49,450 bases of DNA from Bdellovibrionota bacterium FG-1 (GTDB lineage Bacteria > Bdellovibrionota > UBA1018), in NCBI GenBank assembly GCA_051382295.1, contig JBBCAW010000001.1, forward strand, positions 1-49,450, read 5' to 3'. Below, one piece after another: positions 3 through 49,371 of the stretch; position 1 is the first letter of the stretch; each line of letters begins with the position of its first letter. The translations under genes and the position numbers were made by a program. Under the pieces are notes generated by a model. The model was not told the DNA's origin and made no database searches. It saw nothing but the letters and a program-made list of their open reading frames with translations.

Positions 3-347
3 AGAGGGCGGCTCTTTGAGCAATGGATCATCAATAATGCAAGGGCGCGCACGGACTATGATGAAAGAGATATCCAGTATTACGCCTGGAGAAATCTATC
101 CAACACGATTGAAGTGGATCTTTTTGCTGTCCGTGGAAAAACCCCTCTTTTTGGAGCTGAAATCAAAAGCTTTAGCCAACCCACCACCGAACACCTTGAC
201 GGGCTCAGAGTGCTCCGTGAGCAATATCCAAAACTTCCTCTGTATCTCGTTTGCACGGCAGAGCATCCTTATTGGGCAAGTGACGTGGAACAGGTCTTGG
301 TCGTTCCTTGGCAAAGCTTTTTGCTTGAGGAACTTCCGAAATATTAG
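3..347 (+). CDS. 3' end of an AAA-family ATPase with DUF4143-like C-terminal domain (truncated by the window edge)
   Basis: Frame 3 is open from the window start: RGRLFEQWII...YYAWRNLSNTIEVDLFAVRGKTPLFGAEIKS. This fits the G-LFE / Y-WR / EVD / EIKS pattern of AAA_14-DUF4143 proteins. Confidence 0.7.
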   Translation, partial: RGRLFEQWIINNARARTDYDERDIQYYAWRNLSNTIEVDLFAVRGKTPLFGAEIKSFSQPTTEHLDGLRVLREQYPKLPLYLVCTAEHPYWASDVEQVLVVPWQSFLLEELPKY

Positions 348-354
348 GGCCTAA

Positions 355-648
355 TCATTCATCCGACGTCGTCCAGATAAATTGAACTTCGGGCATCACC
401 TGGATTTGAAAAAAGCCTGAAACTCCAAAACCCAAATAAGGGTTGATATCTAAGTAAAAAGCATCAAATTCCCAACCGTTGCTGCCCACCGCATTTTCAA
501 GCGCACAAGTTTGCGCTGCCGCAGGAACAACCAAGAGTTCTTGCCTCATCCATTGCGATAAAGCTGGAATAGGAGCGGCATTTGCGGTGGCACAAACCAA
601 CCCAACCAGGGGCAGCCAGTATGGGGCCTTAGCGAGATGCTTTTGCAT
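355..648 (-). CDS. Small exported hypothetical protein with one helix + beta-hairpin module
   Basis: 97 aa. Signal-peptide-like N-terminus ending ANA-A. C-terminus is WEFDAFYLDINPYLGFGVSGFFQIQVMPEVQFIW. Overlaps the upstream gene by 20 bp. Confidence 0.65.
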   Translation of the reverse strand: MQKHLAKAPYWLPLVGLVCATANAAPIPALSQWMRQELLVVPAAAQTCALENAVGSNGWEFDAFYLDINPYLGFGVSGFFQIQVMPEVQFIWTTSDE

Positions 649-1993
649 AGATCAACTCCAGTTCACCGACGTTACCAATCGTCACAATCCCGAAAATACC
701 ATTCAAGGACATGTCAAATTCATTAGAAACTTCATGAAGCTCCCAACGTCCTGTTCCGCCTCGCGGAGTATGTCTTACAAAAAACGTTGATATTCGTTGC
801 GCTCGTCTTAAACCCGCACGCAGGGCTGATCGTCGAATCTTAACGATCCTTCGAAAAGGTTCAAGAGCTCGCAAGGGGTGAAACACAATACCCGCTTCTT
901 TGATTTCTGGCCGTAATTCTAGAGCGGCATCGGTGATTAGATCGACGGTTTCCTCTTGATCTATTTTGTCTGCATCTGTCGTCGAGTCCGCTCCCGTAAA
1001 TCCCAGAGTCTCGTGCGAGTCAGGGACCTTTTCAAAAAGTAAACTGCCCTTCATATGAGTAGAGGCTTGAGCAAATCCAAAATCTCCACCGGTGGTGATC
1101 CCCACCGCCGTGCGAATGGCATTCAGAGTGAAGCCGTTGAGTTCCATCCCATAGGCATCGTTTTCAAGGACATCGAGATCCCGAGAAAGAGCGGTCACAA
1201 AACCTTGGAGTCTTTCGCTCATTCGGTCCTGAGGGGGGGAGAGGGGGGCTGAACCCATTCGAGATCCCAGAAATTCAGATGAGGGTTTCTCCGACTTTTT
1301 CCAGTCAAAACGAAAAGTCACAGTGGCCCCCACCTGGACCCACGGAAGGGGCCTCCCGCTAGCGTCAAACTGAAGCTCAAGTCGAAAACTATTAGCTCGC
1401 CATTGCGAGTGGCGAAGAGAAAGCGAATCCAAGGAGCGTGCTAAAATCTGAAAATTCCGTGCAGATTCAGTCAAGTGCGTCCGCAAGCTGGGTTCATCCC
1501 GAATGATCCCCGTCGCTAAAGCCGCGCGAATCGCAGGTTCGATCTGTTGCGATAAAATCCCTGGTTCGCTGGGAGGCGCTGCTGGGTTTGAATCCCGATT
1601 TCGCCAAACCACCTGACCCGCCGCTGTCCCAGCCCCGACCAAAACTCCGATGATCCCGCTGAGGGTGACGCCAAAATCAGCGATGTAGCCACTGAGGTGC
1701 CACGGTTGCGCACAGTGAATAGTGTCGCGAAAAAAGTCGACTGGCTCTGAACGCAAACCCTCAAGGACCTCTTGATGAGTATCGACGATTTGCCCAAAGG
1801 AAGAGCCCAGCCGACTTTCGGTTTCCCTGGATAATGGACTCAGCTCAGGAGACTGTCGATCCGTAGTGGTCAACCAGTCTGATGGAAATCCCGTGGAGGG
1901 AGCTATCGGTCGGCATCCGCCGGCTCCCAGCCCCAGGATTAATAAAAGGACTGATAAAACGCAAAAACTAAAACCACGAATAAAATGATTCAT
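629..1993 (-). CDS. Putative lipoprotein with four repeated helix + beta-hairpin modules
   Basis: 454 aa. Hydrophobic N-terminus ending LGAGGC (lipobox-like Cys). Four segments have alternating hydrophobic residues around a central Gly turn. Confidence 0.7.
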   Translation of the reverse strand: MNHFIRGFSFCVLSVLLLILGLGAGGCRPIAPSTGFPSDWLTTTDRQSPELSPLSRETESRLGSSFGQIVDTHQEVLEGLRSEPVDFFRDTIHCAQPWHLSGYIADFGVTLSGIIGVLVGAGTAAGQVVWRNRDSNPAAPPSEPGILSQQIEPAIRAALATGIIRDEPSLRTHLTESARNFQILARSLDSLSLRHSQWRANSFRLELQFDASGRPLPWVQVGATVTFRFDWKKSEKPSSEFLGSRMGSAPLSPPQDRMSERLQGFVTALSRDLDVLENDAYGMELNGFTLNAIRTAVGITTGGDFGFAQASTHMKGSLLFEKVPDSHETLGFTGADSTTDADKIDQEETVDLITDAALELRPEIKEAGIVFHPLRALEPFRRIVKIRRSALRAGLRRAQRISTFFVRHTPRGGTGRWELHEVSNEFDMSLNGIFGIVTIGNVGELELIYAKASR

Positions 1994-2002
1994 AAGACGG
2001 TC

Positions 2003-2395
2003 TCATTGAAACGGAAAGGTTGGAATCCGAGCGCGAGAGTAAAGCAGCCGGATTCGGGGTTTGCCCGAAATCGAAAAAATCGGCCCCAGGCCCACCTGTG
2101 TGTTGATGGCAAAACCGACGACCACGGTATTGAGCCGAAGGGGTCCATCCGGATTTCTGGTGCAGGCCAACTCCGGAAACACCGACTCATGCACGGATTG
2201 CACCGCCACTTCCATTTGATCGCGATAAGAACCGGGTGAAATTGAGCGAAAGCCGTTTTGCCCGCTGTCACCTAGTCCAATCAGGGCCACAGGGGATAAC
2301 CCTCTTGAAAACGCTGAATGAGCTGTCAACGCGCCAGTTAAGGCGATTGATCCCAAAACCACAGCGAGGCCCGCCCGCCGAATTGTCTTTTTCAT
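2003..2395 (-). CDS. Exported hypothetical protein with one helix + beta-hairpin module
   Basis: 130 aa. Classic signal peptide MKKTIRRAGLAVVLGSIALTGALTAHSA. 9-bp gap to the next gene. Confidence 0.7.
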   Translation of the reverse strand: MKKTIRRAGLAVVLGSIALTGALTAHSAFSRGLSPVALIGLGDSGQNGFRSISPGSYRDQMEVAVQSVHESVFPELACTRNPDGPLRLNTVVVGFAINTQVGLGPIFSISGKPRIRLLYSRARIPTFPFQ

Positions 2396-2735: not shown

Positions 2736-3242
2736 TCAGTCCCTCTTTTCGTTATTGCTTTGAGTCAAATAAACGCCCATGAGCCTGGCGTTGCACTCCA
2801 AAATTTGGCTGATGGACTTGGCGTGCCAACGTCCGCCGTTTTTGGTTTGAACATTTTCGGCACTGAAGGCCCGCGCAATCGCATGAAGCGACAACTTCGA
2901 GCGCCTGCCCTCGACCATCCTGGCGATTAGCTTTTGCTCGGCGACGTGTGGAACGAGCCGACCCTTCTCTCGCTTCCAGCCGAAGGGCGTCTGTCCCGTC
3001 ATGTCGAGCGCCCGCCGCGTCGACTGCACTTTGACCTTGGCGCGCTTGAGTGTCTCGCGCACGAGATCCCGCGAAACCCCGAGGCGAGCGGAAATTTGCT
3101 TCAAAGAAAGGCGTTCCTGCACATAGAGCGCAGGGATTTGGACTTCAAAATCTAGCTCTCGACAAAGGGAATGGTTAAACGTATCAACGAGGTACGTCCC
3201 AGGTGAGCGATTTTTTGTCTGTTCTGTGGATTGGGACCCCAT
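2736..3242 (-). CDS. HTH + serine-recombinase DNA-binding (Recombinase) domain protein lacking the catalytic resolvase domain
   Basis: TPFGWKREKGRLVPHVAEQKLIARM...SLHAIARAF...TKNGGRWHAKSISQIL matches the recombinase-domain pattern. It is preceded by an HTH (LSLKQISARLGVSRDLVRETL). No Y-x-R-x-S catalytic motif. Confidence 0.7.
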   Translation of the reverse strand: MGSQSTEQTKNRSPGTYLVDTFNHSLCRELDFEVQIPALYVQERLSLKQISARLGVSRDLVRETLKRAKVKVQSTRRALDMTGQTPFGWKREKGRLVPHVAEQKLIARMVEGRRSKLSLHAIARAFSAENVQTKNGGRWHAKSISQILECNARLMGVYLTQSNNEKRD

Positions 3243-3569
3243 ACTTACTTAAATTTCAAATACTTACAAATACAACCCTCGTCTAAATAAGACGAGGGAG
3301 ACGACCGATACATTGTTTAACCACAATGGAATCGAAGGGCTCTCCTCGAGTCCATCACCGAAAGGAATCCTCGCATGGGCTGTTACATTCGCGTCTTGCG
3401 ACCACAGAATAAACCGCTTTGAAAAGCGGCTCCTACGCGACCTCACTGAAGAGCTAACAAATATTGAGGTCAAGGATGCTCGGTGGCGCGAGGTCATCGA
3501 GCGCTGGGCGCGCCACCAAGAGCTGTAAGGGCAGGCTCTCGTGTAACAGAAGGATATCATTGCTTTCTT

Positions 3570-3635
3570 TTTCGTGTCGTTTCGAATGTTTCGTTTATTT
3601 CGTATGTTGCGTTTAATGGATTGTGCCGATACAAT
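3570..3635 (+). promoter_or_regulatory. Sigma-70 promoter with overlapping 9-bp-period direct repeats (putative operator of the HTH-PIN operon)
   Basis: TTGCGT(3607-3612)-N17-TACAAT(3630-3635). TTTCG/TTGCG units start at 3570, 3580, 3589, 3598 and 3607. Confidence 0.6.
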
Positions 3636-3663
3636 GGTAAACAGAAGCACCTGAGGAGAAATT

Positions 3664-4125
3664 ATGGCACTTCCAAAAATGAAGCAGAAAATGCCCCGCG
3701 CCAGGTCAGCTCCCCGTCCAGCAAAGAGGAGCATTAAGGTGCTCAATTATTTAGAGTTAAAAAAGCTCATAGCCCGGACAGGAAAGCGCGTTTCCATTTT
3801 CTTAGGTAATGACGAAATTCAAATGCTAAAAAGTGAGCAAAAACTTTTTATCGAAGCCGTCTTGGAAACGATTGATCTCAAGGAAGCACAGAAGAGTGGC
3901 TCTGTCCTATCGACCCAAGAAGTTGCCGATCTTCTCAATGTTTCGCGTCCATTTGTCGTCAAGCTGATCGAAAAGCATCAGCTTAAATCTTTCAACGTCG
4001 GTTCTCATCGCAGAGTTCTAGAGGTAGACGCCCTCGCTTTTCGGCAGAAAATGAGAAATGAAAAGAATGACGCACTTGATGCTCTTGCAAAAGAGACCGA
4101 AAGCCTGGGTCTCGAATTCAAATGA
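3664..4125 (+). CDS. Excisionase-family (HTH_17) DNA-binding protein, putative antitoxin
   Basis: LSTQEVADLLNVSRPFVVKLIEK...VGSHRRV motif. RBS GAGGAG upstream. ATGA overlap with the PIN gene. Confidence 0.85.
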   Translation: MALPKMKQKMPRARSAPRPAKRSIKVLNYLELKKLIARTGKRVSIFLGNDEIQMLKSEQKLFIEAVLETIDLKEAQKSGSVLSTQEVADLLNVSRPFVVKLIEKHQLKSFNVGSHRRVLEVDALAFRQKMRNEKNDALDALAKETESLGLEFK

Positions 4126-4682
4126 GTCGAATGATCGCGTTTTTAGACGCATGTGTCCTCTATCCTTTTTCATTGAGAGATGTGCTGATTCAGTTCTCGG
4201 TTGAGGGGATGTTTCAGGCCAAATGGTCTGCCAAAGTTCAAGCCGAGGTGATCAAGAACGTTGAAGGGAACAATCCAGCCATCTCCGGAAGACTCGTACG
4301 CACGTTTGGGTTGATGGAGCGCGCAGTACCAGACTTCCGGTCGGAACCAACCCAGAACACTGTTGGCCTTGTCTCGCAGTCTTCCACCGATCCAAAGGAT
4401 GTCGAGATTTTGGCCGCCGCGATCGACGGCGCATGTACCCATCTGGTTACGTCGAATCTCAAGGACTTTGATATTGCCTACGGATCAGCTCGTGGCGTCG
4501 CGGTGATGCACCCCGACGAGTTTTTAGAAAAGCTGATTGAGGAACATTTAGAAAGCGCGCGAGCTGGATTTGAGACTATTGTGGCCAGGTGCAAGAACCC
4601 GCCCCGCGCGAAAGCGGATTATTGCGAAGCTTTTAAGAAAAACCGGTTACCAAAGACAGCATCGAAGCTGGAGTATCTTTGA
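4122..4682 (+). CDS. PIN-domain protein (VapC-like putative ribonuclease toxin)
   Basis: Acidic PIN motifs AFLDACVLYP, LRD, DPKDVEILAAAI, LVTSNLKDF and HPDEFL. Confidence 0.85.
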   Translation: MSRMIAFLDACVLYPFSLRDVLIQFSVEGMFQAKWSAKVQAEVIKNVEGNNPAISGRLVRTFGLMERAVPDFRSEPTQNTVGLVSQSSTDPKDVEILAAAIDGACTHLVTSNLKDFDIAYGSARGVAVMHPDEFLEKLIEEHLESARAGFETIVARCKNPPRAKADYCEAFKKNRLPKTASKLEYL

Positions 4683-4777
4683 GCGGTCCGGAAGAAGCTG
4701 GCGAAGCCACCGCGCCCCGGCAGCAGTAGAAAACCGAGGAAATGATGCAGTAGTCATGTGTCGCATCAAGTGCTGAG

Positions 4778-4843
4778 TCATCGATACCGGGCGGAATTGT
4801 AGCTTGAGCAGGCGCTGCGCCCGGCGAACAAGGACGGGCAGCC
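4778..4843 (-). pseudogene. 3' fragment of a paralog of the 67-aa gene at 2529-2732, cut off by an IS remnant
   Basis: Encodes GCPSLFAGRSACSSYNSARYR-stop. 56/66 nt identical to 2529-2594. Confidence 0.7.
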
Positions 4844-5353
4844 TGTCCTGCTTCAAATTCAAAATCAGGCAGCAACCGAGATTGAAAAGCGTGTTGTCCA
4901 AATACTCCCTGCGCACCGTACCGATAAGTCGCTCAACAAAGGGATCGTCATCCGTACTCAAATGCCGCGGTAAACCGTTTTGTAGCCGAATAGCTACAAA
5001 CATTCGGCAGACATCTTCACCAGTTTCTCGATGCCGATTTTGGACAGCCACGACGGACCTGGGCCCAAAGGCGTGAAGTAATGCTTACGAAGAATTCTTC
5101 TGACCAGCTGCTCACCAACGCTCTGTGAAGCCGAAGTAAAGTTGAATGGGCGACGACAACGGAGAGTTTCGGCAGTCGCGAGTCGATCCAAGAGCGTGAG
5201 TCTTGGCGCTCTCGAATTTTTTCTTCGGACGAGCAAGAGCTGCTGTCTGAGCAAAAGGGTCTCGGCGACCAACAGACTCTTGCCACCAGGCCTAGAGATT
5301 TTTGCCGTCAGCACAAAAACGTCCAAAATCAGTCGCAACACTTCTTCGAACAT
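4844..5353 (-). mobile_element. Internally deleted IS481-like (integrase core) transposase pseudogene
   Basis: Fragments in different frames: AETLLLRQQLLLVRRKNSRAPRLTLLDRL, STLLRLHRALV, VRRILRKHY..GPSW, VCRMF..PRHLSTDDDP, FVERLIGTVRREYLD and RFSISVAA-stop. The end begins TGTCCTGCTTCAAATTC. Confidence 0.75.
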
Positions 5354-5473
5354 TTCTCATTTTTGGTGCCTCTTATTAAAGCCAGCAGTTGCAATATATT
5401 ACATCGGTTTTATGATATTTCACATACCTGCAAAATACATTTGATATCTGCAATAACGTGCTATACTAGGGAC

Positions 5474-6568
5474 ATGGATCTAGCCAGAAAGCTCAACCAG
5501 ACCGCAGCCCTCGTACAGGATTTTTTTCAGGGACTCCATTCGGGCGGCTGGGCAGGCGCTGAACTTTACGAGCCGCCGAACCTGCCGGTTTGGATGAGGG
5601 GGGCTGCTCGATACGGCCGCTTCAGATGTGGGTCCGCCCAAGGCGACCTGCAAGTGACGCTGATCGTCCCCGAAAAAGGACTTCCCTTTGAGCACGTCGC
5701 CAACCTCTATCGAGTCTTCACGAGGATGGGATCGGGACCGGCCCTGATCCTGGCCGACGATCTGCCGCCTAAGGCCCGAGGCGTTCTCGTCCGCATGGGC
5801 ATCCCTCATGTGGTGAGCGACGGCTCGATCTATGCGCCACAGCTCGGACTAGCCTATGGAAAAATCAGGGAGCCGCCTGCCGAACGAGTGACCGCTCAGA
5901 CGCTTTCGTCCGTCGGCCTCAAGCTCACGGCGGCCTATCTTCTCAATCCAAAACTTTTTGAAGGCCCTCCTGCACTTTCTGAACTTCAGGAGCGCCTTGA
6001 AAAGCAAGGACCGTACTCCGTTTCGGTTGCGACCCTGTCGCGCGCCTTTCAACAGCTTCAAGAACTAGAACTCGTCGAGGTTAAAGGCCAGGGACCAAAT
6101 AAGCGCATGCACTTCCTGGAAGGTCCGCAAACCTGGGTACAACTCCTCCGTGTTCCCGTGGAAACCATCGTCCGTCGAGTGGAAACCCGCTATCTACCTC
6201 ACGACGACAGCATGTACGTTCTTTCGGGCGATTCCGCTCTCGGAAAACTTTCCGACCTGACGGACCCCACCTCTCCGACGGTTGCCATGTCGGTATCCTC
6301 CTACCGCAAATGGAAAGAAAACGCCGGCGACACTTGGGGGAAAAGGGATCAGCCCGTGACCGATTGGGGCGCGCCTCCCTGCATAATTGAACTCTGGAAA
6401 GAAGATCCGCATTTCTTGCAGGAGAAGGGCTGTATCAACGCCGTCGAGCTAGTGCTATCACTTCGTTGGCACCACGACGAGCGAGTGCAAATAGCTCTCG
6501 ACCAGATTCTTGAACACCACGGACTCGACCCAGCGTCGCTCGAAGCAGGAAGGACATCGCATGACTAA
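5474..6568 (+). CDS. Winged-HTH protein, putative AbiEi-like antitoxin/regulator
   Basis: Central HTH (SVSVATLSRAFQQLQELELV), YVLSGDSALGKLSDL, and C-terminal IELW...INAVELVLSL...DERVQIAL. Start moved to ATG 5474, behind the extended -10 TGcTATACT. Confidence 0.65.
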   Translation: MDLARKLNQTAALVQDFFQGLHSGGWAGAELYEPPNLPVWMRGAARYGRFRCGSAQGDLQVTLIVPEKGLPFEHVANLYRVFTRMGSGPALILADDLPPKARGVLVRMGIPHVVSDGSIYAPQLGLAYGKIREPPAERVTAQTLSSVGLKLTAAYLLNPKLFEGPPALSELQERLEKQGPYSVSVATLSRAFQQLQELELVEVKGQGPNKRMHFLEGPQTWVQLLRVPVETIVRRVETRYLPHDDSMYVLSGDSALGKLSDLTDPTSPTVAMSVSSYRKWKENAGDTWGKRDQPVTDWGAPPCIIELWKEDPHFLQEKGCINAVELVLSLRWHHDERVQIALDQILEHHGLDPASLEAGRTSHD

Positions 6569-7322
6569 ACTGCAATCCCATCAGGTAACGGAGTTCGGTG
6601 CCTACTTCAAGAATCACCTCAAGGACTACTCCATCATCGGCGGAGCCGCGACCCTCATCCACCTCGACGAGCGGGCGGCCGGAACGCACACGAAAGCCAC
6701 CAAGGATCTTGACATCGCCGTACTTGATCTGAGCGCCGATGGAAAGACCTCGACGTTTCTTACGCGCTTCACTCGATACGTCGATGAAATGCAGTATGAT
6801 GTTTTCACCGGCAAGACCGAGAAGGCCCACGCGTATCGCTTTATGAATCCAAAGGCTGGTATCGCTCCCCACAAGATCGAGATCGCGACCCGTTTGATGG
6901 AAGGGTTGAAGCTCAAAGGAGAGGCTCAACGGCTAACGGAATTCGACATTTCAGCAATCGTCTGCGATCCCGTCTACATCGAGCACCTGAAATCGCATTC
7001 GGAGGCAAAGGTGCTCTCCGGCACTGGAGGCGCTCCGGTTAATGTCGCCCGCGCCAGCTCCATCATATTGATGAAGGCCCTGGCCTATGTAAATCTCATC
7101 GCAAACGATGCGATGAAACACCACGCCGCCCGTCACGCGGCGGACATCATGCGCCTGTCCGCAGTGCTCAATGAGTCCGACAGAATCGAGGTTCAGGCTG
7201 ACCTCTACGCCGCCTTTGAAAGGCTCGTTAGCATGAGCAGCACGGCCTTTCCCGTTGATCGGGTCAAGGAGATTCGAGGTAAGAAAGTCCCGCCCGATCA
7301 GGTGATTTCCGAGCTGAAGTAG
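6561..7322 (+). CDS. DNA-pol-beta-superfamily nucleotidyltransferase (AbiEii-like putative toxin)
   Basis: YSIIGGAA...KATKDLDIAV (GG plus DxD) and ILMKALAY...HAADIMRL. Start at 6561 overlaps the upstream gene by 8 bp. Confidence 0.7.
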   Translation: MTKLQSHQVTEFGAYFKNHLKDYSIIGGAATLIHLDERAAGTHTKATKDLDIAVLDLSADGKTSTFLTRFTRYVDEMQYDVFTGKTEKAHAYRFMNPKAGIAPHKIEIATRLMEGLKLKGEAQRLTEFDISAIVCDPVYIEHLKSHSEAKVLSGTGGAPVNVARASSIILMKALAYVNLIANDAMKHHAARHAADIMRLSAVLNESDRIEVQADLYAAFERLVSMSSTAFPVDRVKEIRGKKVPPDQVISELK

Positions 7323-11872: not shown

Positions 11873-12687
11873 TCACTCCACCAGTTCCTTGGCGAGCTTG
11901 GTCAGAAGCGCCATGAGTTGGTCCCAGCAATCCTTGAACGCTGGCGCTTTCCCGGCCACGTCAACGCTGCCCCATGCCGCCGTGAGTACACCGCGATCTA
12001 TGCGGCCCACGGCTTCAACGAGATTTTTTGGAAGTCTGGTATTCCGCTTTTGACAGACGACGCGCACCGCGCGGGCGATGTCAGCGCTGCTCTTGCACCT
12101 CGGAAAAATTTCCACCAGGTCATAGACATCTTTGGCGCGCGAGTTGGCTGACCCACGGGCCAGCAGCGTTTGAAGCTTCTCGGCGAAAATAAACTCAAGC
12201 GGGTAGACTCGCCACGAAAGCGGCGCCGCCCCCAGCACGGTCGGCATTCGTGCGAATGACCTTTTGGCTTGGGCCGGGACCTCATCGCCAATGCCGATGT
12301 CAATGTGGAGCCGGGAAAGCTTCTCGATTTTTGCTTTTTCCGGCGGCTCCTTTCCGATATGAAAACCACAGTTGGCCCGTAGTCCTCCGTATTCACCTTG
12401 ATTCGGCACGGGTTCCACGCGGGTATCTACAAACCACAGCTCGTCATGAAGATTGTGCTCAAGAGCGTTTTTGATCAGCTCCATCGATTTTTTCTGGTCG
12501 ATGTCAAACGCAAGGGCATCAAGGTCGCGCGTAAAGCGCGCACTCTGGGCTCGGCTTCAAGCCGCGCTATGACCCGTTCAATCGCTACAATGACCCGAAT
12601 CTGGCTGAATTTTAGGCGTGATTTCGGTTCGGCGGCGAGGCGCTTGATTTGCTCCACGAGACCGATAGGATCGTTCTTCGGTTTCAT
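11873..12687 (-). pseudogene. AbiEii/AbiGii-family nucleotidyltransferase toxin, frameshifted
   Basis: N-terminus (IVAIERVIARLE) is in one frame. ARFTRDLDAL...IDIGIGD...YPLEFIFAEKLQTL...NSRAKDVYDL is in another. The KGG segment expected between them is missing. Confidence 0.8.
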
Positions 12688-12688
12688 A

Positions 12689-13264
12689 TCAAGCCAGTGC
12701 CTCAATGTAGGGACGAATCTTATCGGCGGCGCTCAACTGGTTCGCCATGTCCAAGACCTTGGAAAGCGTGGTTTTTTTCTGCGCAATGGCGGTGCGGATG
12801 GCTTCCACCGCGACGTTGGTGCCAATTCGTTTCCGCTCAATCAAGCATTCGGCAAGGGTTCGCTCCACGGAGGTGATCGAATAGCCTTTCTCCCGAACAA
12901 CGCCGACATTGAACCGGGGCTCTCGTTTCCGGAACAGCCGCACGCCCGTGAACCGCGTATGCTTTTCCACTGGCACGAGGAGCCATACCGCACGCGGGAT
13001 GATGTCAGTTAGGCCATAGAATGCCAGGGCCGACAAAAGGCACACGGCTGAATCCCCACCCAAGCGAAGCGTCGCTATGCGAAACTGCTCCTCGTCGTTG
13101 ATATCCTCCGCCGGAACGCGGTAGACACCACGGCTCATACGTTCAAGGCCGCCCGTTTTAAGCTGGCGTTGAATCTCATTCCACGAAACATCAAGCTGCT
13201 TGGCCTCTGCCCAGGTGAAAAGGCGAGTCCGGAGCTTTTGCGGAAATACGGGCCTTTTTGCCAT
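12689..13264 (-). CDS. Type IV toxin-antitoxin AbiEi-family antitoxin
   Basis: LERMSRGVYR, VCLLSALAFYGLTDIIP and ITSVERTLAECL motifs. Directly upstream of AbiEii. Start taken as MAKRP at 13264. Confidence 0.85.
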   Translation of the reverse strand: MAKRPVFPQKLRTRLFTWAEAKQLDVSWNEIQRQLKTGGLERMSRGVYRVPAEDINDEEQFRIATLRLGGDSAVCLLSALAFYGLTDIIPRAVWLLVPVEKHTRFTGVRLFRKREPRFNVGVVREKGYSITSVERTLAECLIERKRIGTNVAVEAIRTAIAQKKTTLSKVLDMANQLSAADKIRPYIEALA

Positions 13265-13266
13265 AA

Positions 13267-13306
13267 ATACAATGTGACACGGAATCGATAACGTGTCACA
13301 TTGTAT
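13267..13306. promoter_or_regulatory. Perfect 15-bp inverted repeat, putative AbiEi operator
   Basis: ATACAATGTGACACG-N10-CGTGTCACATTGTAT immediately upstream of the abiEi start. AbiEi proteins autorepress through promoter inverted repeats. Confidence 0.75.
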
Positions 13307-13448
13307 GTTATCTCCAACATCAAACACTGTCGTTTCAGTTATTTGCAGATTCCGACCGCCCATGGGAACCTCCAGATTGTGAAGGGTGAACAGGGAGCCT
13401 GGAGCGGTAACCGCCTCTACTCTCGCCGTACCCCATAGTCGCCTTATC

Positions 13449-14396
13449 TCACTTACACACCGAGTGCTTCGGCAGCGCGCGCGCGAAAATGCATTGGAGA
13501 TAGCCTTTGGGATCCGGGTGCCTTTCATCGGGGTCCGCGTTGCAATCCCAGGCCCAATGGGCAGGTCTTTTTCTCCAAGCTGAAAAGATGATGTCGGCAA
13601 AAGCTTCGGTGCCCTGGTACGAGGCACAAATAGGTTTGTTTTTCGCCCGTTCGGCCGTTTGGTGGTCTTTCAGGGCTTGAAGGACGCATTCGCGGGTTTG
13701 CACGCCTACCGTGTTGTCAAAATCGGCAATACTGGTTCCTGAAAAGGGACAGGCAGAAACAAGAGCCATCATGGGAAGGGCGCCATTTCTCGACGTCTGG
13801 CAGGCGTGGCCAAGCTCATGAAGGAAGATCCGCTCGATGCATTCCCGGTTTTCGCAGGATAAAAGAACTTCCTCGGAAACATACACTGCATGATCGTTAT
13901 AGGCGAAATGAGAAGTGAGATTCCCATATCCGAGACCCTGCAGGATTTTTAGCTGAGTTTTGGAAAAATAATCACGGCAGGATTTATCTGGGCCACAACA
14001 CATGGCTTGCATGTCCGGGGCCGAAATCATTTGATCAAAGGAGACTTTGGCGGTGCGAAAGGCGCGTTTCCAAGTAGGGCTTTGATGTTGGTTTTCGGCT
14101 TGCCATTCGACAGCATTGGGCGACCAGCAAATGTTTGACTTGCATAGCCTGCTTGTTTTCCGGCAAAAAGACTCTATTTCAAAAGGCGCACCGCAGTCGA
14201 TCTTCCGGACCTTCGAATAAGGGAGGAGGTCGGGATCGTTGCCGCTCCGGGGGCTGGACGCATTGGGTGACAAGCGCAAATGAAGGACCTTGTCCAGGTA
14301 TTCGTCGATAAGGATCGGGACTCCGGCTTCCTCGGCTCGGGTGGCCGCCGAAAGGAACAGGAGTAAAAATAGGGCTAAAAGCGCGAATTTTTTCAT
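13449..14396 (-). CDS. Exported Cys-rich zinc metallopeptidase (gluzincin-like)
   Basis: Signal peptide, IFLHELGH followed by EAFAD, and many Cys. ATGA overlap with the mlaD stop. Confidence 0.7.
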   Translation of the reverse strand: MKKFALLALFLLLFLSAATRAEEAGVPILIDEYLDKVLHLRLSPNASSPRSGNDPDLLPYSKVRKIDCGAPFEIESFCRKTSRLCKSNICWSPNAVEWQAENQHQSPTWKRAFRTAKVSFDQMISAPDMQAMCCGPDKSCRDYFSKTQLKILQGLGYGNLTSHFAYNDHAVYVSEEVLLSCENRECIERIFLHELGHACQTSRNGALPMMALVSACPFSGTSIADFDNTVGVQTRECVLQALKDHQTAERAKNKPICASYQGTEAFADIIFSAWRKRPAHWAWDCNADPDERHPDPKGYLQCIFARALPKHSVCK

Positions 14397-17794: not shown

Positions 17795-20683
17795 ATGCTC
17801 AGGGACATGACCAAAAGGTTTCGAAATACTTTCTTTCTTTCTGCCCGCCGGATGGCGTTTTTGACGCTAGCGGTTTCTCTGGGGGGGCACGCCTTTGCGG
17901 CGGAGACGGTTCGCCTTGAAACCTTTAAAACCCATAGTCGCCTCGATTTTCGCGTAGATGGAAACGTCCCGACGGAATGGAAGTCCACGCCCCAGGGGTT
18001 TGACCTTTTCTTAAAGGGTGCCGATCTCGCTGATCTGGGAATTCCCTTGGGCGAAGAAGGGAAATGGGCCAAAAAGCTGAAAACCCTGAACGACTCCCGT
18101 TTGACCAATATTGAAGTGGCAGAGGTGGAGGGGGGGGTTAAGGTCCGAGGGCGGTGGAAGTATCCGACTGGACCTCAAGCGCCCGCCCAGCCGCAAATGG
18201 AGTCTTTTGACTACCGTGACAAAGAATCATCCGATTTGGTTATTGATTTTTGGGTAAAAGACGGCCCTACGCTCGCCCAGCTGGATGCTCGGAGGGAGGC
18301 GGAACGCCAGCTCGAAGCGACTCGTAAACGCGAAGAAATGGAGCGCGCGCGCGCGGTCAGGCGGGCGGCACGCGCGAAAGTCAGAGCCCAGGAAGAAGAT
18401 CCTTTCCTGTTCTGTCGCACGCCGCTCAATGAAGATGGTGACGTGTTTTTGCAGTTTCAACCGTTTCATGAAAAGGTCGATTTTTCGCGTTGGATATCTT
18501 CCCGCGCTCCAGATACCAATTTTGCTTACTATGACCCCAAGGGAAAAAGCCAAGAGGCTCAGTATGTGCGCCTGGCGCTCCGGCTTTATCGGCAGAACAA
18601 TTTCGGACTGGTCAATCGGACGCTCGATTTTTTTGAAAAAGATTTCCCGAATTCTTCGTTCCGTTCAGAAATGAGATTTTTGCGTTCCAATGCGCTCTTT
18701 AAGCTGGGAATGGTCGATCAAGCCGTTCGCGAACTTAAGGAGATTTTGCATGAGCCCAAAGGGTCTTCGGTGACGCTGCAGTCGGCGATGTTTATTGCCG
18801 GTCGTGAACTCGACGTGAACAATTACCTGGGCGCGCTTGAGACCTTTATGTGGCTTTCGTCCCATCACGCTGAAAGCCGAATCGCGTGGGTATTTCATTT
18901 GGGGGCGGCTGAGTGCGCGCGAGCCCTGAAACAAACGGATCGTGCCGTTAAAGAATATGAGTGGGTGGCCGAGCACGCTCCGGATGCTGCCTCTCGCGCC
19001 GAGGGCGGGCTTCGTGCGGGCGACCTTTTTATGGAACGCTTTCAATACGATCAGGGCTTGGCGACCTATGCGCAGGGTTTGCGTCACTTCAAGGCCGAAG
19101 CCGAAACTTTTCCGGCTGTTTTCATTAATCGCGCCGAGGCTCTTTATGGGCTGGGGCAGCTCGATCGTGCTTCGGAGGCATTTAGGGATTTTCTAACCCG
19201 TTTTCCGGCCCATCCGGCAGGCTGGCGGGCAACTTACCGATTGGCAGAGACTGAGGGTCGAAAAGTTGGAGCTACTCGTGACTCCATGGCCGCACGGAAG
19301 TGGTATTTTGATACGGTCAACCATTATCCGTTCAGTCCGGGCGCAACCATCGCACGCTTACAATTGATGACTTGTGGTGATCACGGGGGGTTTTCCCCAG
19401 ATTCCGCTCGCAAGTTTTTGAGCGAAGAAGCCGAAAATTTTAACTCTTCGGCTGAAATTGTCATGGATCGTTATAAAGATTTTAGAGCTTTGGCGCACGT
19501 TCGGACGTTGATGACCCTAGGGTTGGACGATGAGGCGGTTGCTACCGCAATTGATGAATTGCAGCGAATTCCGCGTCCTGAAGCGCGACGATGGCTGGGT
19601 AGTCTTCTGGCTCAAAATTTTAGGAAAACGATTTTAGCCCTCCTCCAAGATGAAAAAAAAATTGAGGCCCTGACCTTCTACCAGGATAACGAAGGCTCGG
19701 TCCCTAGGACCGAAATTCGCGTCGATCCGGATTATTTGTTGAAGCTTTCCCAGGCGGCTTCTGACCTTGGATTGGGTAAAGTAGCCCAGGATTTGAATAA
19801 CGATTACGAAAAAACGCATAAAATGTTGGTTGGCAAAAATCGCATTTTGGCGTCGGCGACCAAACCCGAACTCGAGGATTTGGAAGATCATCTTCAAGCC
19901 TCCGAGCGCGGCTATGCCGAAGCCAAGGCGATTTGGATTGAAAGTGGTCTTGCTAATCGGGTCTTTTCATCCAAAACAATGAAAATCGAAGAGGTGGAGA
20001 CGAAGATTAGAAGGCTCTTGGGGCAAGTGGCTCCCGAATCAGAGTATTCGGATGAGCGTGAAATTATTTTGGGCTTGCTGGATGAACGTGCTGGACACTA
20101 TCAGTCCGCGCTTCAGCACGCTGCCCAGGCTCAGGTTTTGGGCGCAAAAAGTCCACGTGTCGAGGCGTGGGTGGCGGCGCTTGAATCCAAGGTGGGCGAT
20201 ATTAATGCGGCTTTGGAGGCTTTTCGTACGCTTGAAGCGCGGCTGGGTGAGGAAGGGTACCAAAAAAAGGGTATCTCGGAACTACTCGGGGTTGCGCCAT
20301 TGCCCAGTCGGGAAACGGTGATCCTTTCGCAGTGTGAGATCTTGGAAAAACAAGGCCGTTGGGGCGAGGCTGCAGCCGAGTATTCTCATGCGGTAGAAAA
20401 GGGCTTAGGGGGTGCACAGGCAAAGTATGGTTACGCCCGGGCGCTCCTCAGGATGGGGGATGTTGAAAACCGAACCAAGGCGTTGAGTGCGCTAGAGCTG
20501 CTCACTCAAGAAGAGAAGACGGCTAAGGGGGCTCCGCCCGCTCTGGTGCAGCCACAAGACGGAGAGGGTAAGCCTCGACCGCCTGGTCACGAAAAAGAAC
20601 GAGAAAAGTTTTGGAGAAGATTGGCAAGTGAAACGCTAGCCAACGAAAAGACCAAAGACAATGCCAAGGAGGGCATTAGGTAA
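17795..20683 (+). CDS. Large exported tetratricopeptide-repeat protein
   Basis: 962 aa. Signal-peptide-like segment ending HAFA. Multiple TPR-like helices (e.g. RAEALYGLGQLDRASEAFRDFLTRFP). Confidence 0.8.
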   Translation: MLRDMTKRFRNTFFLSARRMAFLTLAVSLGGHAFAAETVRLETFKTHSRLDFRVDGNVPTEWKSTPQGFDLFLKGADLADLGIPLGEEGKWAKKLKTLNDSRLTNIEVAEVEGGVKVRGRWKYPTGPQAPAQPQMESFDYRDKESSDLVIDFWVKDGPTLAQLDARREAERQLEATRKREEMERARAVRRAARAKVRAQEEDPFLFCRTPLNEDGDVFLQFQPFHEKVDFSRWISSRAPDTNFAYYDPKGKSQEAQYVRLALRLYRQNNFGLVNRTLDFFEKDFPNSSFRSEMRFLRSNALFKLGMVDQAVRELKEILHEPKGSSVTLQSAMFIAGRELDVNNYLGALETFMWLSSHHAESRIAWVFHLGAAECARALKQTDRAVKEYEWVAEHAPDAASRAEGGLRAGDLFMERFQYDQGLATYAQGLRHFKAEAETFPAVFINRAEALYGLGQLDRASEAFRDFLTRFPAHPAGWRATYRLAETEGRKVGATRDSMAARKWYFDTVNHYPFSPGATIARLQLMTCGDHGGFSPDSARKFLSEEAENFNSSAEIVMDRYKDFRALAHVRTLMTLGLDDEAVATAIDELQRIPRPEARRWLGSLLAQNFRKTILALLQDEKKIEALTFYQDNEGSVPRTEIRVDPDYLLKLSQAASDLGLGKVAQDLNNDYEKTHKMLVGKNRILASATKPELEDLEDHLQASERGYAEAKAIWIESGLANRVFSSKTMKIEEVETKIRRLLGQVAPESEYSDEREIILGLLDERAGHYQSALQHAAQAQVLGAKSPRVEAWVAALESKVGDINAALEAFRTLEARLGEEGYQKKGISELLGVAPLPSRETVILSQCEILEKQGRWGEAAAEYSHAVEKGLGGAQAKYGYARALLRMGDVENRTKALSALELLTQEEKTAKGAPPALVQPQDGEGKPRPPGHEKEREKFWRRLASETLANEKTKDNAKEGIR

Positions 20684-47998: not shown

Positions 47999-48529
47999 AT
48001 GAACTTGAAACAATTGATCTTTTTCCCGTTTTTGACACTTCAACTTGGCCTAGCCGCCCTTCCCGCCCACGCAGAGGACAAGCCTACCGATCCTACGGCT
48101 GGAATTTCCGAGCTTGCCAAGAAATCGGTGGATGCTTTGGGCTCAGTCGACCTTGGTAAATTGACGAAGTCGGATCGCACTGCTTTTATGGAGGCGTTAG
48201 GCAATCTCTCGAAAATCGAGGATCGCGCTAATATTCAATACTCGTACTTTTCTGACCCTTATTATCAATACTATTGCGACGGGAGAGGAACTATTGATAG
48301 CGACCAGAAGTCAACAAATCAACGATTGGCCCAAGAATCGGCCTTAAATAGCTGCCGCATAGCGGGAGCTACGGACTGTGTGTTGGTATCCACCGGCCCG
48401 ACAACTAACGAAAGCTACAGAGAAGACCATTCCGAAGATGCTATCGTATTAAAGAACTGGCACTGCTTCCACTCTGCAACCGCGATCCAATCTACCGCCA
48501 CCGCACGCGGCATCATGCCTAAAAAGTGA
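47999..48529 (+). CDS. Exported Cys-containing hypothetical protein
   Basis: Signal peptide ending AHA-E, and AQESALNSCRIAGATDC. GTGA overlap with the next gene. Confidence 0.7.
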   Translation: MNLKQLIFFPFLTLQLGLAALPAHAEDKPTDPTAGISELAKKSVDALGSVDLGKLTKSDRTAFMEALGNLSKIEDRANIQYSYFSDPYYQYYCDGRGTIDSDQKSTNQRLAQESALNSCRIAGATDCVLVSTGPTTNESYREDHSEDAIVLKNWHCFHSATAIQSTATARGIMPKK

Positions 48530-49371
48530 TTGAGAGTTCCAAGGTGCAAACCGCGAGAGTTCCTTCTGACTATTTGCGTGAGGCCTATCTCAAGCGCCGA
48601 GCCAACAACCCCGCCTACTCGGCGAGGGCGTTTGCCCGGCATTTGGGCGTGAGCCAGCCGTATTTGAGTCTGCTCATGGCGGACAAACGCAAACTTGCCC
48701 TCGATACGGCGCTTAAGCTCAGCATCGGTCTGCAGTTCAGCGATGAGGAACGCGAGGGTTTTCTCGTATCCGTATCTCTGTACTCACAAGGCGATACGAA
48801 GAGTCGCGCGTTTTTGCAATCTCGACTCGGGACGGCTGAAAAATCGGAGAGCGTTCAGCAGCTCGAGTTGCAGGTCGAGCGCTTCAAAGCTCTCGGTCAA
48901 TGGTATCACGTTGCGATCTTGGACCTTTCCACGACGGATGGGTTTGACCCGTCACATAAGAGTATCGCGCGTAGGCTAGGGATCACGGAGCTCGAGGTGC
49001 GCGACGCGATTGAGCGACTCTTGCGGCTCCGCTTGCTCGAAGCCACAAAGGGTACTTACCGAAAGACGCTCAAGCACTTCGTGATTCCGACGGAACGCTC
49101 TGAAGAATGTATTCGCTCACTCCATCGGCAGATGATCCAAAAAGGACTCGATCAGTTGGAACTGCACTCAGAGCGCGACTTTAAACGTCGCGAAGTCACA
49201 GGTATCACCTTTGCCATTGATCCGGGCAAAGTGTCCGAGGCGCGAGCCCGAATCGCGCAGTTTAAAAAAGAAATGGCCGCGTTTCTAACGGAGTCCGATT
49301 GCAGCGAAGTCTATCAGATGAATGTTCAATTTTTTCCGCTCACCACCCCCGCAGAGGAGCAGTCGTCATGA
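48526..49371 (+). CDS. TIGR02147/DUF4423-like HTH protein
   Basis: RRANNPAYSARAFARHLGVSQPYLS, QWYHVAILDL, IARRLGI and EVYQMNVQFFPLT. Confidence 0.85.
   Translation: MIESSKVQTARVPSDYLREAYLKRRANNPAYSARAFARHLGVSQPYLSLLMADKRKLALDTALKLSIGLQFSDEEREGFLVSVSLYSQGDTKSRAFLQSRLGTAEKSESVQQLELQVERFKALGQWYHVAILDLSTTDGFDPSHKSIARRLGITELEVRDAIERLLRLRLLEATKGTYRKTLKHFVIPTERSEECIRSLHRQMIQKGLDQLELHSERDFKRREVTGITFAIDPGKVSEARARIAQFKKEMAAFLTESDCSEVYQMNVQFFPLTTPAEEQSS

Follow-up and report, generated by a model that had tools for sequence, protein, structure and literature searches.

A three-gene operon of Bdellovibrionota with six Pepco-type helix and hairpin modules on likely exported proteins, and the heteromeric barrel they may form

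What do three tightly packed genes make when each product carries a likely export leader and one or more copies of a single module? The question is raised by an operon at positions 355 to 2,395 of a 49,450-nucleotide stretch of Bdellovibrionota bacterium FG-1 (contig JBBCAW010000001.1, assembly GCA_051382295.1), which was analysed as a whole and is called the window here. The three genes lie on the minus strand and are transcribed in the order A, B, C; 9 bp separate A from B, and B and C overlap by 20 bp. The open reading frames (ORFs) are as described in a first-pass annotation made from the sequence, and the six motifs quoted there are all present in the translations. A, B and C match no Pfam or NCBIfam family and have no paralogue elsewhere in their own genome. 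A scan for promoters and terminators around the operon gave results near chance level. The answer we propose is that the three chains, of which B is related to the pore-forming protein Pepco, may share one barrel. The features used below are as follows.

2003..2395, minus strand: gene A, 130 amino acids; likely signal peptide, A-specific N-terminal hairpin, one amphipathic helix and, in the C-terminal part, one Pepco-type β-hairpin and then a short tail containing Pro
2240..2290, minus strand: A residues 36-52, a conserved segment with a GLD motif; possible lid
2039..2140, minus strand: hairpin of module A, residues 86-119
629..1993, minus strand: gene B, 454 amino acids; likely lipoprotein signal (Cys27), conserved LPxxW motif and four helix and hairpin modules
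1874..1993, minus strand: B residues 1-40, with the hydrophobic leader, Cys27, P37 and W40
1604..1702, minus strand: hairpin of module B1, residues 98-130
1301..1402, minus strand: hairpin of module B2, residues 198-231; conserved charges on the polar face
1034..1132, minus strand: hairpin of module B3, residues 288-320; polar face Gly-rich
647..745, minus strand: hairpin of module B4, residues 417-449; joined to C in some relatives
355..648, minus strand: gene C, 97 amino acids; likely signal peptide, helix and one hairpin
373..474, minus strand: hairpin of module C, residues 59-92

The repeat is visible only at the profile level, because BLASTP with single sequences shows no similarity among the three proteins. 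With hhalign all 15 pairs of modules align, at E values from 1.2e-4 to 5e-10. The forward alignment beats the reversed-profile control in every pair, but three reversed controls still reach 3e-5 to 2e-4. The hairpin spans 33-34 residues in all six modules. With register anchors picked by eye, the hydrophobic pattern of each hairpin correlates with the mean pattern of the other five at r = 0.68-0.91, while the maximum in 1134 other placements is 0.59. The hhalign controls and the register correlation reject a chance pattern as the source of the six-fold repeat, and the first-pass count of six copies of one module is borne out.

The six hairpins share one layout. An aromatic residue, Trp or Phe, stands at the base of each; large hydrophobic residues alternate on one face, the waist is rich in Gly, Ala and Ser, the tip is hydrophobic and a further aromatic residue closes strand 2. 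The polar faces vary by module. That of B2 has five conserved charges (Arg in 69% of rows in column 204, Asp or Glu in 72% in 206, Arg in 50% in 226, Arg in 75% in 228, and Asp or Glu in 83% in 230), those of A and B3 are Gly-rich, and those of C and B4 are mixed. The AlphaFold2 model of B has a predicted local distance difference test score (pLDDT) of 85.5 and a predicted template modelling score (pTM) of 0.85, and consists of four units of a helix and a long hairpin. In this model and in the column profiles an amphipathic helix is followed by a hairpin with one hydrophobic and one charged face, as in Pepco. A conserved basic amphipathic helix (B 388-409) precedes the B4 hairpin, and the helix of C is shortened or missing in some relatives. 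Elements extra to the Pepco plan are the N-terminal hairpin of A, the LPxxW motif of B (columns P37 and W40 are 92-93% conserved), a second helix before B2 and an insert between B3 and B4.

The relation to Pepco is found with profiles of the B family. The Pepco profile PF24393 matches 24 of 30 B rows at E ≤1 (best 1.3e-14), and other families match at most four rows each; among these is Trypco1 (PF19493), with 4/30 rows, a best E value of 2.3e-5 and one row just above its cut-off. At E 0.01, 19 of 33 B relatives match Pepco, and 15 of the 33 pass the Pfam cut-off of 27 bits when the score is summed over repeats. Of eight single modules taken from the two B homologues with the best scores, a favourable choice, seven match the same Pepco region (about 39-110), with 12-25 bits. 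When 201 genomes of the phylum were searched blindly with the Pepco profile, four matches appeared; all were below the cut-off, and three lay in B genes. Neither of two OprB porins and neither of two Trypco2 proteins scores on the profile at all. The blind matches in B genes and the silence of the porins reject a generic β-barrel artefact of the Pepco model. Direct matches to Pepco are absent from all 32 A homologues and all 18 C homologues. At the profile level, B is a remote Pepco homologue, and A and C appear tied to Pepco only through the modules of B. A search of the ESM Atlas with module B3 of one B homologue (P0004) gave a top cluster in which 13% of members carry Pepco, at a score of 0.77, which we take as a lead only; the whole protein gave no usable match there.

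According to the available text of a preprint (PMC12642450), Pepco of Streptomyces subrutilus (SsPepco) is a 117-residue protein encoded beside a protease. It forms heat-stable barrels of 9-11 subunits, modelled as charged in the lumen and hydrophobic outside, with amphipathic helices at the base; the work did not yield a high-resolution structure. The same text reports that cleavage at Ile97 turns Pepco lethal, that killing acts through the membrane and requires the amphipathic helix, and that the Pro-rich tail of Pepco is inhibitory. The operon resembles Pepco in the unit of amphipathic helix and hairpin, in the hydrophobic and charged strand faces and in the head-to-tail antiparallel pairing of units, which is predicted here from a model. 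It differs in that Pepco is a single unit of about 117 residues forming homo-9-11-mers, whereas six distinct units are found here on three chains. Pepco lies beside a serine or cysteine protease, often fused to a sensor, and is switched by the cut after Ile97, while A, B and C have hydrophobic leaders, no conserved tail and no partner protease family. For the last point, 116 flanking ORFs of 20 loci were surveyed, up to three on each side by a greedy ORF rule. None belongs to the trypsin, caspase/CHAT, S8 or STAND families (38 of the 116 are without a Pfam family), and there is one peptidase each of the M16, rhomboid, M14 and C92 kinds. Around the operon in the window no trypsin-like or caspase-like protease family is found either, in agreement with the first-pass remark that no protease is adjacent. 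Since the protease neighbour, the single cytoplasmic unit and the cleavable tail all fail, the operon is set apart from the Pepco protease-effector module, although architecture and predicted assembly are alike. We found no description of an exported or multi-copy Pepco in the literature searched, which mostly left out subscription papers. The main text of the preprint (PMC12642450) as available does not mention signal peptide, lipoprotein, tandem, periplasm, outer membrane or Bdellovibrio, and the accessible text of its supplement does not contain Pepco, Bdellovibrio or Bacteriovora; its homologue tables could list B-like proteins.

Co-assembly of the three proteins, which had been put forward from the sequence, is supported in a predicted complex of B30-454, C25-97 and A33-130 at 1:1:1, with A scored. 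The interaction prediction score from aligned errors (ipSAE) is 0.83, and the best of three controls is 0.09. Of 157 solved complexes, 116 reach the mark used for this score, as do 2 of 215 mismatched pairs; these counts hold only roughly for three chains and the alignments used here. The model runs have at least 82% of contacts in common, with partner pLDDT of at least 74. The most confident contacts are antiparallel and join strand 2 of A to strand 1 of B1 (A115-119 with B100-106) and strand 1 of A to strand 2 of C (A90-93 with C88-91), giving a predicted head-to-tail pairing C-A-B1, the arrangement that hairpins must adopt to build a barrel. This pairing, together with the natural fusions that place B4 directly before C, suggests a ring A-B1-B2-B3-B4-C. 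In the same model A also contacts B153, B221 and B439-440, which would be possible in a strongly curved or closed sheet; the contacts with B221 and B439-440 would fit a closed 12-strand arrangement. Two such sets would give 24 strands, nearer the 18-22 of Pepco. The tip of the B1 hairpin is irregular in both models that lack A (B, and a B-C fusion) and is contacted by A in the complex, where the GLD-motif segment of A is predicted to dock on it (A37/39 with B116/117). The model of the natural B-C fusion has a pLDDT of 73.4 and is weak in the C part. A search of the Protein Data Bank by sequence gave nothing significant. Fold searches with the models of B and the B-C fusion, both lacking A, gave no Foldseek match at E 0.001; the best fold matches (Z 5.8 and 4.7) are mostly helical hairpins, and solved membrane barrels reach at most Z 5.1. 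As no solved look-alike was found, the complex score is unlikely to be a memory of a solved complex.

In the contact list of the complex, the B1 and C helices touch A along their length, and the N-terminus of A lies at the level of the hairpin tips. These contacts bear on a different outcome, a soluble or tethered α/β ring in the periplasm or on the surface, in which the hydrophobic strand faces would lie under the helices, and the charged lumen would hold a ligand or serve as a scaffold, without spanning a membrane. A helix of about 20 residues for each hairpin is the proportion needed to cover a sheet, and adjoining helices lying lengthwise on A, with A37/39 reaching a B hairpin tip, are what the model predicts. 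The hairpin middles are rich in Gly, Ala and Ser on both faces, and the ceiling of Z 5.1 for solved membrane barrels points the same way. However, in four B-C fusions only a linker of about 20 residues is left of the helix, and the stand-alone C of locus L083 has none; the hydrophobic strand face is kept in all of these. The Trp or Phe at the base of all six hairpins also speaks against the soluble ring, as does the helix-dependent membrane killing by Pepco, which has the same anatomy (PMC12642450, available text). We regard the soluble ring as unlikely.

Export is suggested by the N-termini. With a nine-residue Kyte-Doolittle mean of at least 2.0 as the criterion, a heuristic rather than SignalP, a hydrophobic N-terminal segment is found in 134 of 140 B, all 32 A and all 26 C homologues, and in only 1 of 103 Trypco2 proteins. 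The column of Cys27 is Cys in 56% of 140 B rows and a lipobox-like pattern is present in 53 of them, so lipidation of B, judged by sequence pattern, is common and not universal. Of the first-pass statement that each protein has a signal peptide or lipobox, the leader stands almost throughout and the lipobox in part of the family. At the other end, most B rows stop 3-6 residues beyond the last strand. The tails of A and C are variable, absent in many members and Pro-containing past the last strand in many others; there is no conserved C-terminal tail, unlike the charged, Pro-rich one of Pepco, which is removed behind a conserved Ile. A C-terminal F-Y-N-x-x-F ends 53 of the 140 B proteins, with Asn at position -4 in 52 of the 53, while A and C have no terminal Phe. 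One might speculate, by analogy, that the terminal Phe of B is a built-in 'cleaved' end, as active Pepco also ends at a precise hydrophobic residue.

The family was found with HMMER among 1.84 billion representatives, in which B has 334 relatives at E ≤0.001 (clusters at 50% identity), all unannotated; a word-indexed homologue search with B returned only B itself, and the relatives surfaced with full HMMER and genome searches. Within the phylum, a profile search finds B in 35 of 401 genomes, at 44 loci and up to three per genome. Pattern scans of a species-genome collection gave 0 and 1 locus. The order of the three genes, on which the first-pass annotation had staked its reading, is kept. With the window proteins as sole queries, A lies upstream at 18 and C downstream at 15 of the first 19 loci (E ≤0.013). 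With locus profiles, which were partly built from the loci they were counted in, A precedes B at 43 of 44 loci (40 full matches and three more, one of them weak at E 0.0045), and all 40 full matches are directly upstream of a B match. The sole locus without A, L085 (G091:C108, about 19867-20372), has B in frame-shifted pieces and neither A nor C was detected. C follows B or is joined to it at 35 of 38 loci read; the three others are a contig end (L043), a locus in which C was undetected (L084) and the broken locus L085. Six of the 38 loci carry a B-C fusion, as do 2 of 149 representatives; in four fusions only about 20 residues separate the hairpins. The C-like gene at L083:1504-1749 (minus strand) encodes a leader and a hairpin without the helix. 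There is no A-B fusion among the loci read, and no longer protein containing A was found, which is weak evidence. A quick tree of 30 B proteins mostly follows host families (seven label changes; minimum 6, shuffled mean 14), and the B-C fusions fall in at least three separate spots of it.

The reading that we favour can be set out as follows. Export probably takes A, B and C to the periplasm, where the chains would assemble head to tail as A-B1-B2-B3-B4-C and back to A into a Pepco-type barrel of 12 strands, or of 24 if two A+B+C sets join. B1 to B4 would follow in sequence order, B4 would pair with C and the ring would close; the natural B-C fusions would complete it. The hydrophobic hairpin face would meet lipid, and the lipid anchor of B, where present, would hold the ring at the outer membrane. 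As no single chain could close the ring, co-assembly after export would replace the proteolytic switch of Pepco. The likely place of the barrel is the outer membrane of the producer itself, where it would form a water-filled channel, and its six differently conserved lumen faces would serve selective passage rather than indiscriminate lysis. Our confidence falls along these steps: a hetero-complex of A, B and C is very probable, a closed barrel is probable, and a membrane pore is somewhat favoured. That the heteromeric barrel is a channel in the producer's own outer membrane falls just short of an even chance, and we propose it tentatively.

Of the two functions offered in the first pass, the channel is ranked above a multi-component pore-forming weapon, whose chains would be exported separately and close into a lytic Pepco-type barrel only in the membrane of prey or a competitor. 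Bdellovibrionota is a phylum with many predators, and multi-component pore toxins are encoded as operons. The host is a probably flagellated member of this phylum, Pepco, from which the modules would descend, has been shown to be a pore-forming toxin, presence is patchy (35/401 genomes, up to three operons in one), and the lack of an A-B fusion is expected if A is a separately held key. Yet the three chains would already come together in the periplasm of the producer, and the flanking ORFs hold no conserved fourth gene or immunity candidate. Lipoprotein signals favour retention, it is not evident why a lytic pore would require six position-specific modules, and absence from 366 of the 401 genomes searched shows that this is not core predation gear. 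A weapon is unlikely in our view. Four points place the outer-membrane channel first. The chains would come together in the producer's periplasm with no immunity gene at hand, many B proteins are likely lipoproteins, the operon is for the most part inherited vertically, and a lumen with six position-specific faces would suit selective passage.

Several observations weigh against the channel. The complex was modelled at 1:1:1 only, and because of the lengthwise helix contacts and the position of the A N-terminus some of the hydrophobic face may lie under the helices, as in the soluble ring. About half of the B rows are without the lipobox Cys. The signal for the β-barrel assembly machinery (BAM) is a last strand with hydrophobic residues in alternation and a final Phe; it was rejected for B, whose 53 Phe ends have a hydrophobic residue at position -3 in 15%. 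The window's own B has no match to PF24393 in Pfam, and in its relatives the Pepco cut-off is passed only by the repeat sum, with every single module below 27 bits. Among the flanking ORFs, no gene for transport or for TonB/secretion is conserved. As to expression, the sequencing-run search listed no RNA run with the operon and one DNA run, with a small share.

A further possibility is a defence effector: the barrel would stand ready-made in the envelope, and under attack by phage or predator a periplasmic protease encoded elsewhere would open it and so kill the cell. Pepco ancestry speaks for it, the Pro-containing tails of many A and C homologues recall the inhibitory tail of Pepco, and in this window the operon abuts a toxin-antitoxin/recombinase island. 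Against these points, the tails are missing in many members and the protease families named above are absent from the flanking ORFs. PADLOC matched 3 of 55 proteins, all different (nine window proteins and 46 of the 116 neighbours were submitted). Phage, plasmid and viral collections gave no match with one query each, and the B tree mostly follows host families. We judge such an effector highly improbable.

More broadly, we lean slightly towards the view that a cytoplasmic, protease-triggered suicide pore of the Pepco kind became an exported, protease-free barrel of six positions, licensed by the meeting of three chains, which predatory Bdellovibrionota would use to open the membranes of prey or rivals, or which would be a new class of self-assembling asymmetric outer-membrane channel. 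If this is true, an immune pore-forming fold has moved out of the cytoplasm and been rebuilt as an ordered hetero-oligomer, and six different hairpins in fixed order would give an asymmetric lumen that is impossible for homo-oligomeric Pepco. A small barrel of three defined chains would then be a useful model of membrane-barrel assembly without a β-signal. The relation to B extends Pepco beyond protease-gated defence and gives a name to a family of 334 unannotated clusters, and the operon is a testable candidate for an envelope channel or a membrane-opening tool in predatory bacteria.

The kinship with Pepco and Trypco that had been suggested in the first pass holds for B and Pepco; A and C have no direct Pepco match, and the link to Trypco2 (PF19631) fails at the profile level. 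The Trypco2 profile has no match in 201 genomes of the phylum at E 0.001, and the six modules align with a profile of 103 sequences, heavy in cyanobacteria, at E 0.03-0.3, values that controls reach as well. Over its first 14 positions, strand 1 does share the hydrophobic register of a Trypco2 profile (r = 0.94, next best 0.66), but the Trypco2 hairpin is about 13 residues longer than those of the operon, and Trypco2 proteins are without hydrophobic leaders (1/103), unlike A, B and C. Four cyanobacterial plasmids contain no PF24393 or Trypco1 protein. The Trypco2 example that was fetched adjoins genes that, judged by a motif, encode CHAT-like peptidases. Trypco1 and Trypco2 are named as trypsin neighbours in the available part of PMC7159879 and appear also in that of 10.1101/2023.09.22.558884.

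Other known systems are more distant. CsgG and secretins are outer-membrane barrels shared among lipoprotein chains, and they are homo-oligomers. The likeness proposed here is that each chain gives hairpins to a common barrel and the main subunit carries a lipid anchor; the fold is unrelated, and the operon would be heteromeric. B2-B3 matches secretins weakly (PilQ at Z 5.1 with a root-mean-square deviation of 7.6 over 100 residues, pIV at Z 4.1), which means only a long hairpin sheet. TMcins, in the available part of PMC12328743, are small exported units that oligomerise into stable pores, β-barrels according to the title. They are single peptides with a transmembrane helix and act against Gram-positive bacteria, and the comparison is by description only.

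Some loci have individual neighbours. Two close relatives carry an OprB porin gene immediately upstream and FeoA/FeoB genes immediately downstream, all on the same strand (L059:6758-7909 and L061:6744-7880, minus strand); a conserved link to OprB or iron transport was rejected, as only these two have it. An unannotated gene of 380 amino acids is directly upstream of A at L066:3475-4632 (plus strand) and L069:6750-7895 (minus strand), the two being 61% identical. At L073:2955-4640 (plus strand), and at this locus only, a C92 papain-like amidase gene is directly upstream of A on the same strand. The island beside the operon, which is found only in this window, looks mobile and occupies positions 3-347 (plus strand), 2736-7322 and 11873-13627. 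It contains the end of a DUF4143 ATPase gene (a PADLOC match to PDC-S01), a short recombinase/helix-turn-helix gene, a pair of an excisionase-type helix-turn-helix gene and a PIN gene, two unannotated ORFs of 401 and 270 amino acids, and AbiEii and AbiEi-like genes. Farther along the window, a full flagellar cluster from flgB to fliA lies at 21857-46494 (plus strand), and positions 48526-49371 hold one of 32 TIGR02147 matches in the genome. Such an expansion is typical of Fibrobacter and Bdellovibrio and, taken together with the flagella, suggests Bdellovibrionota, although a literature search gave no paper on it. The genome of locus L076 has 8 TIGR02147 matches.

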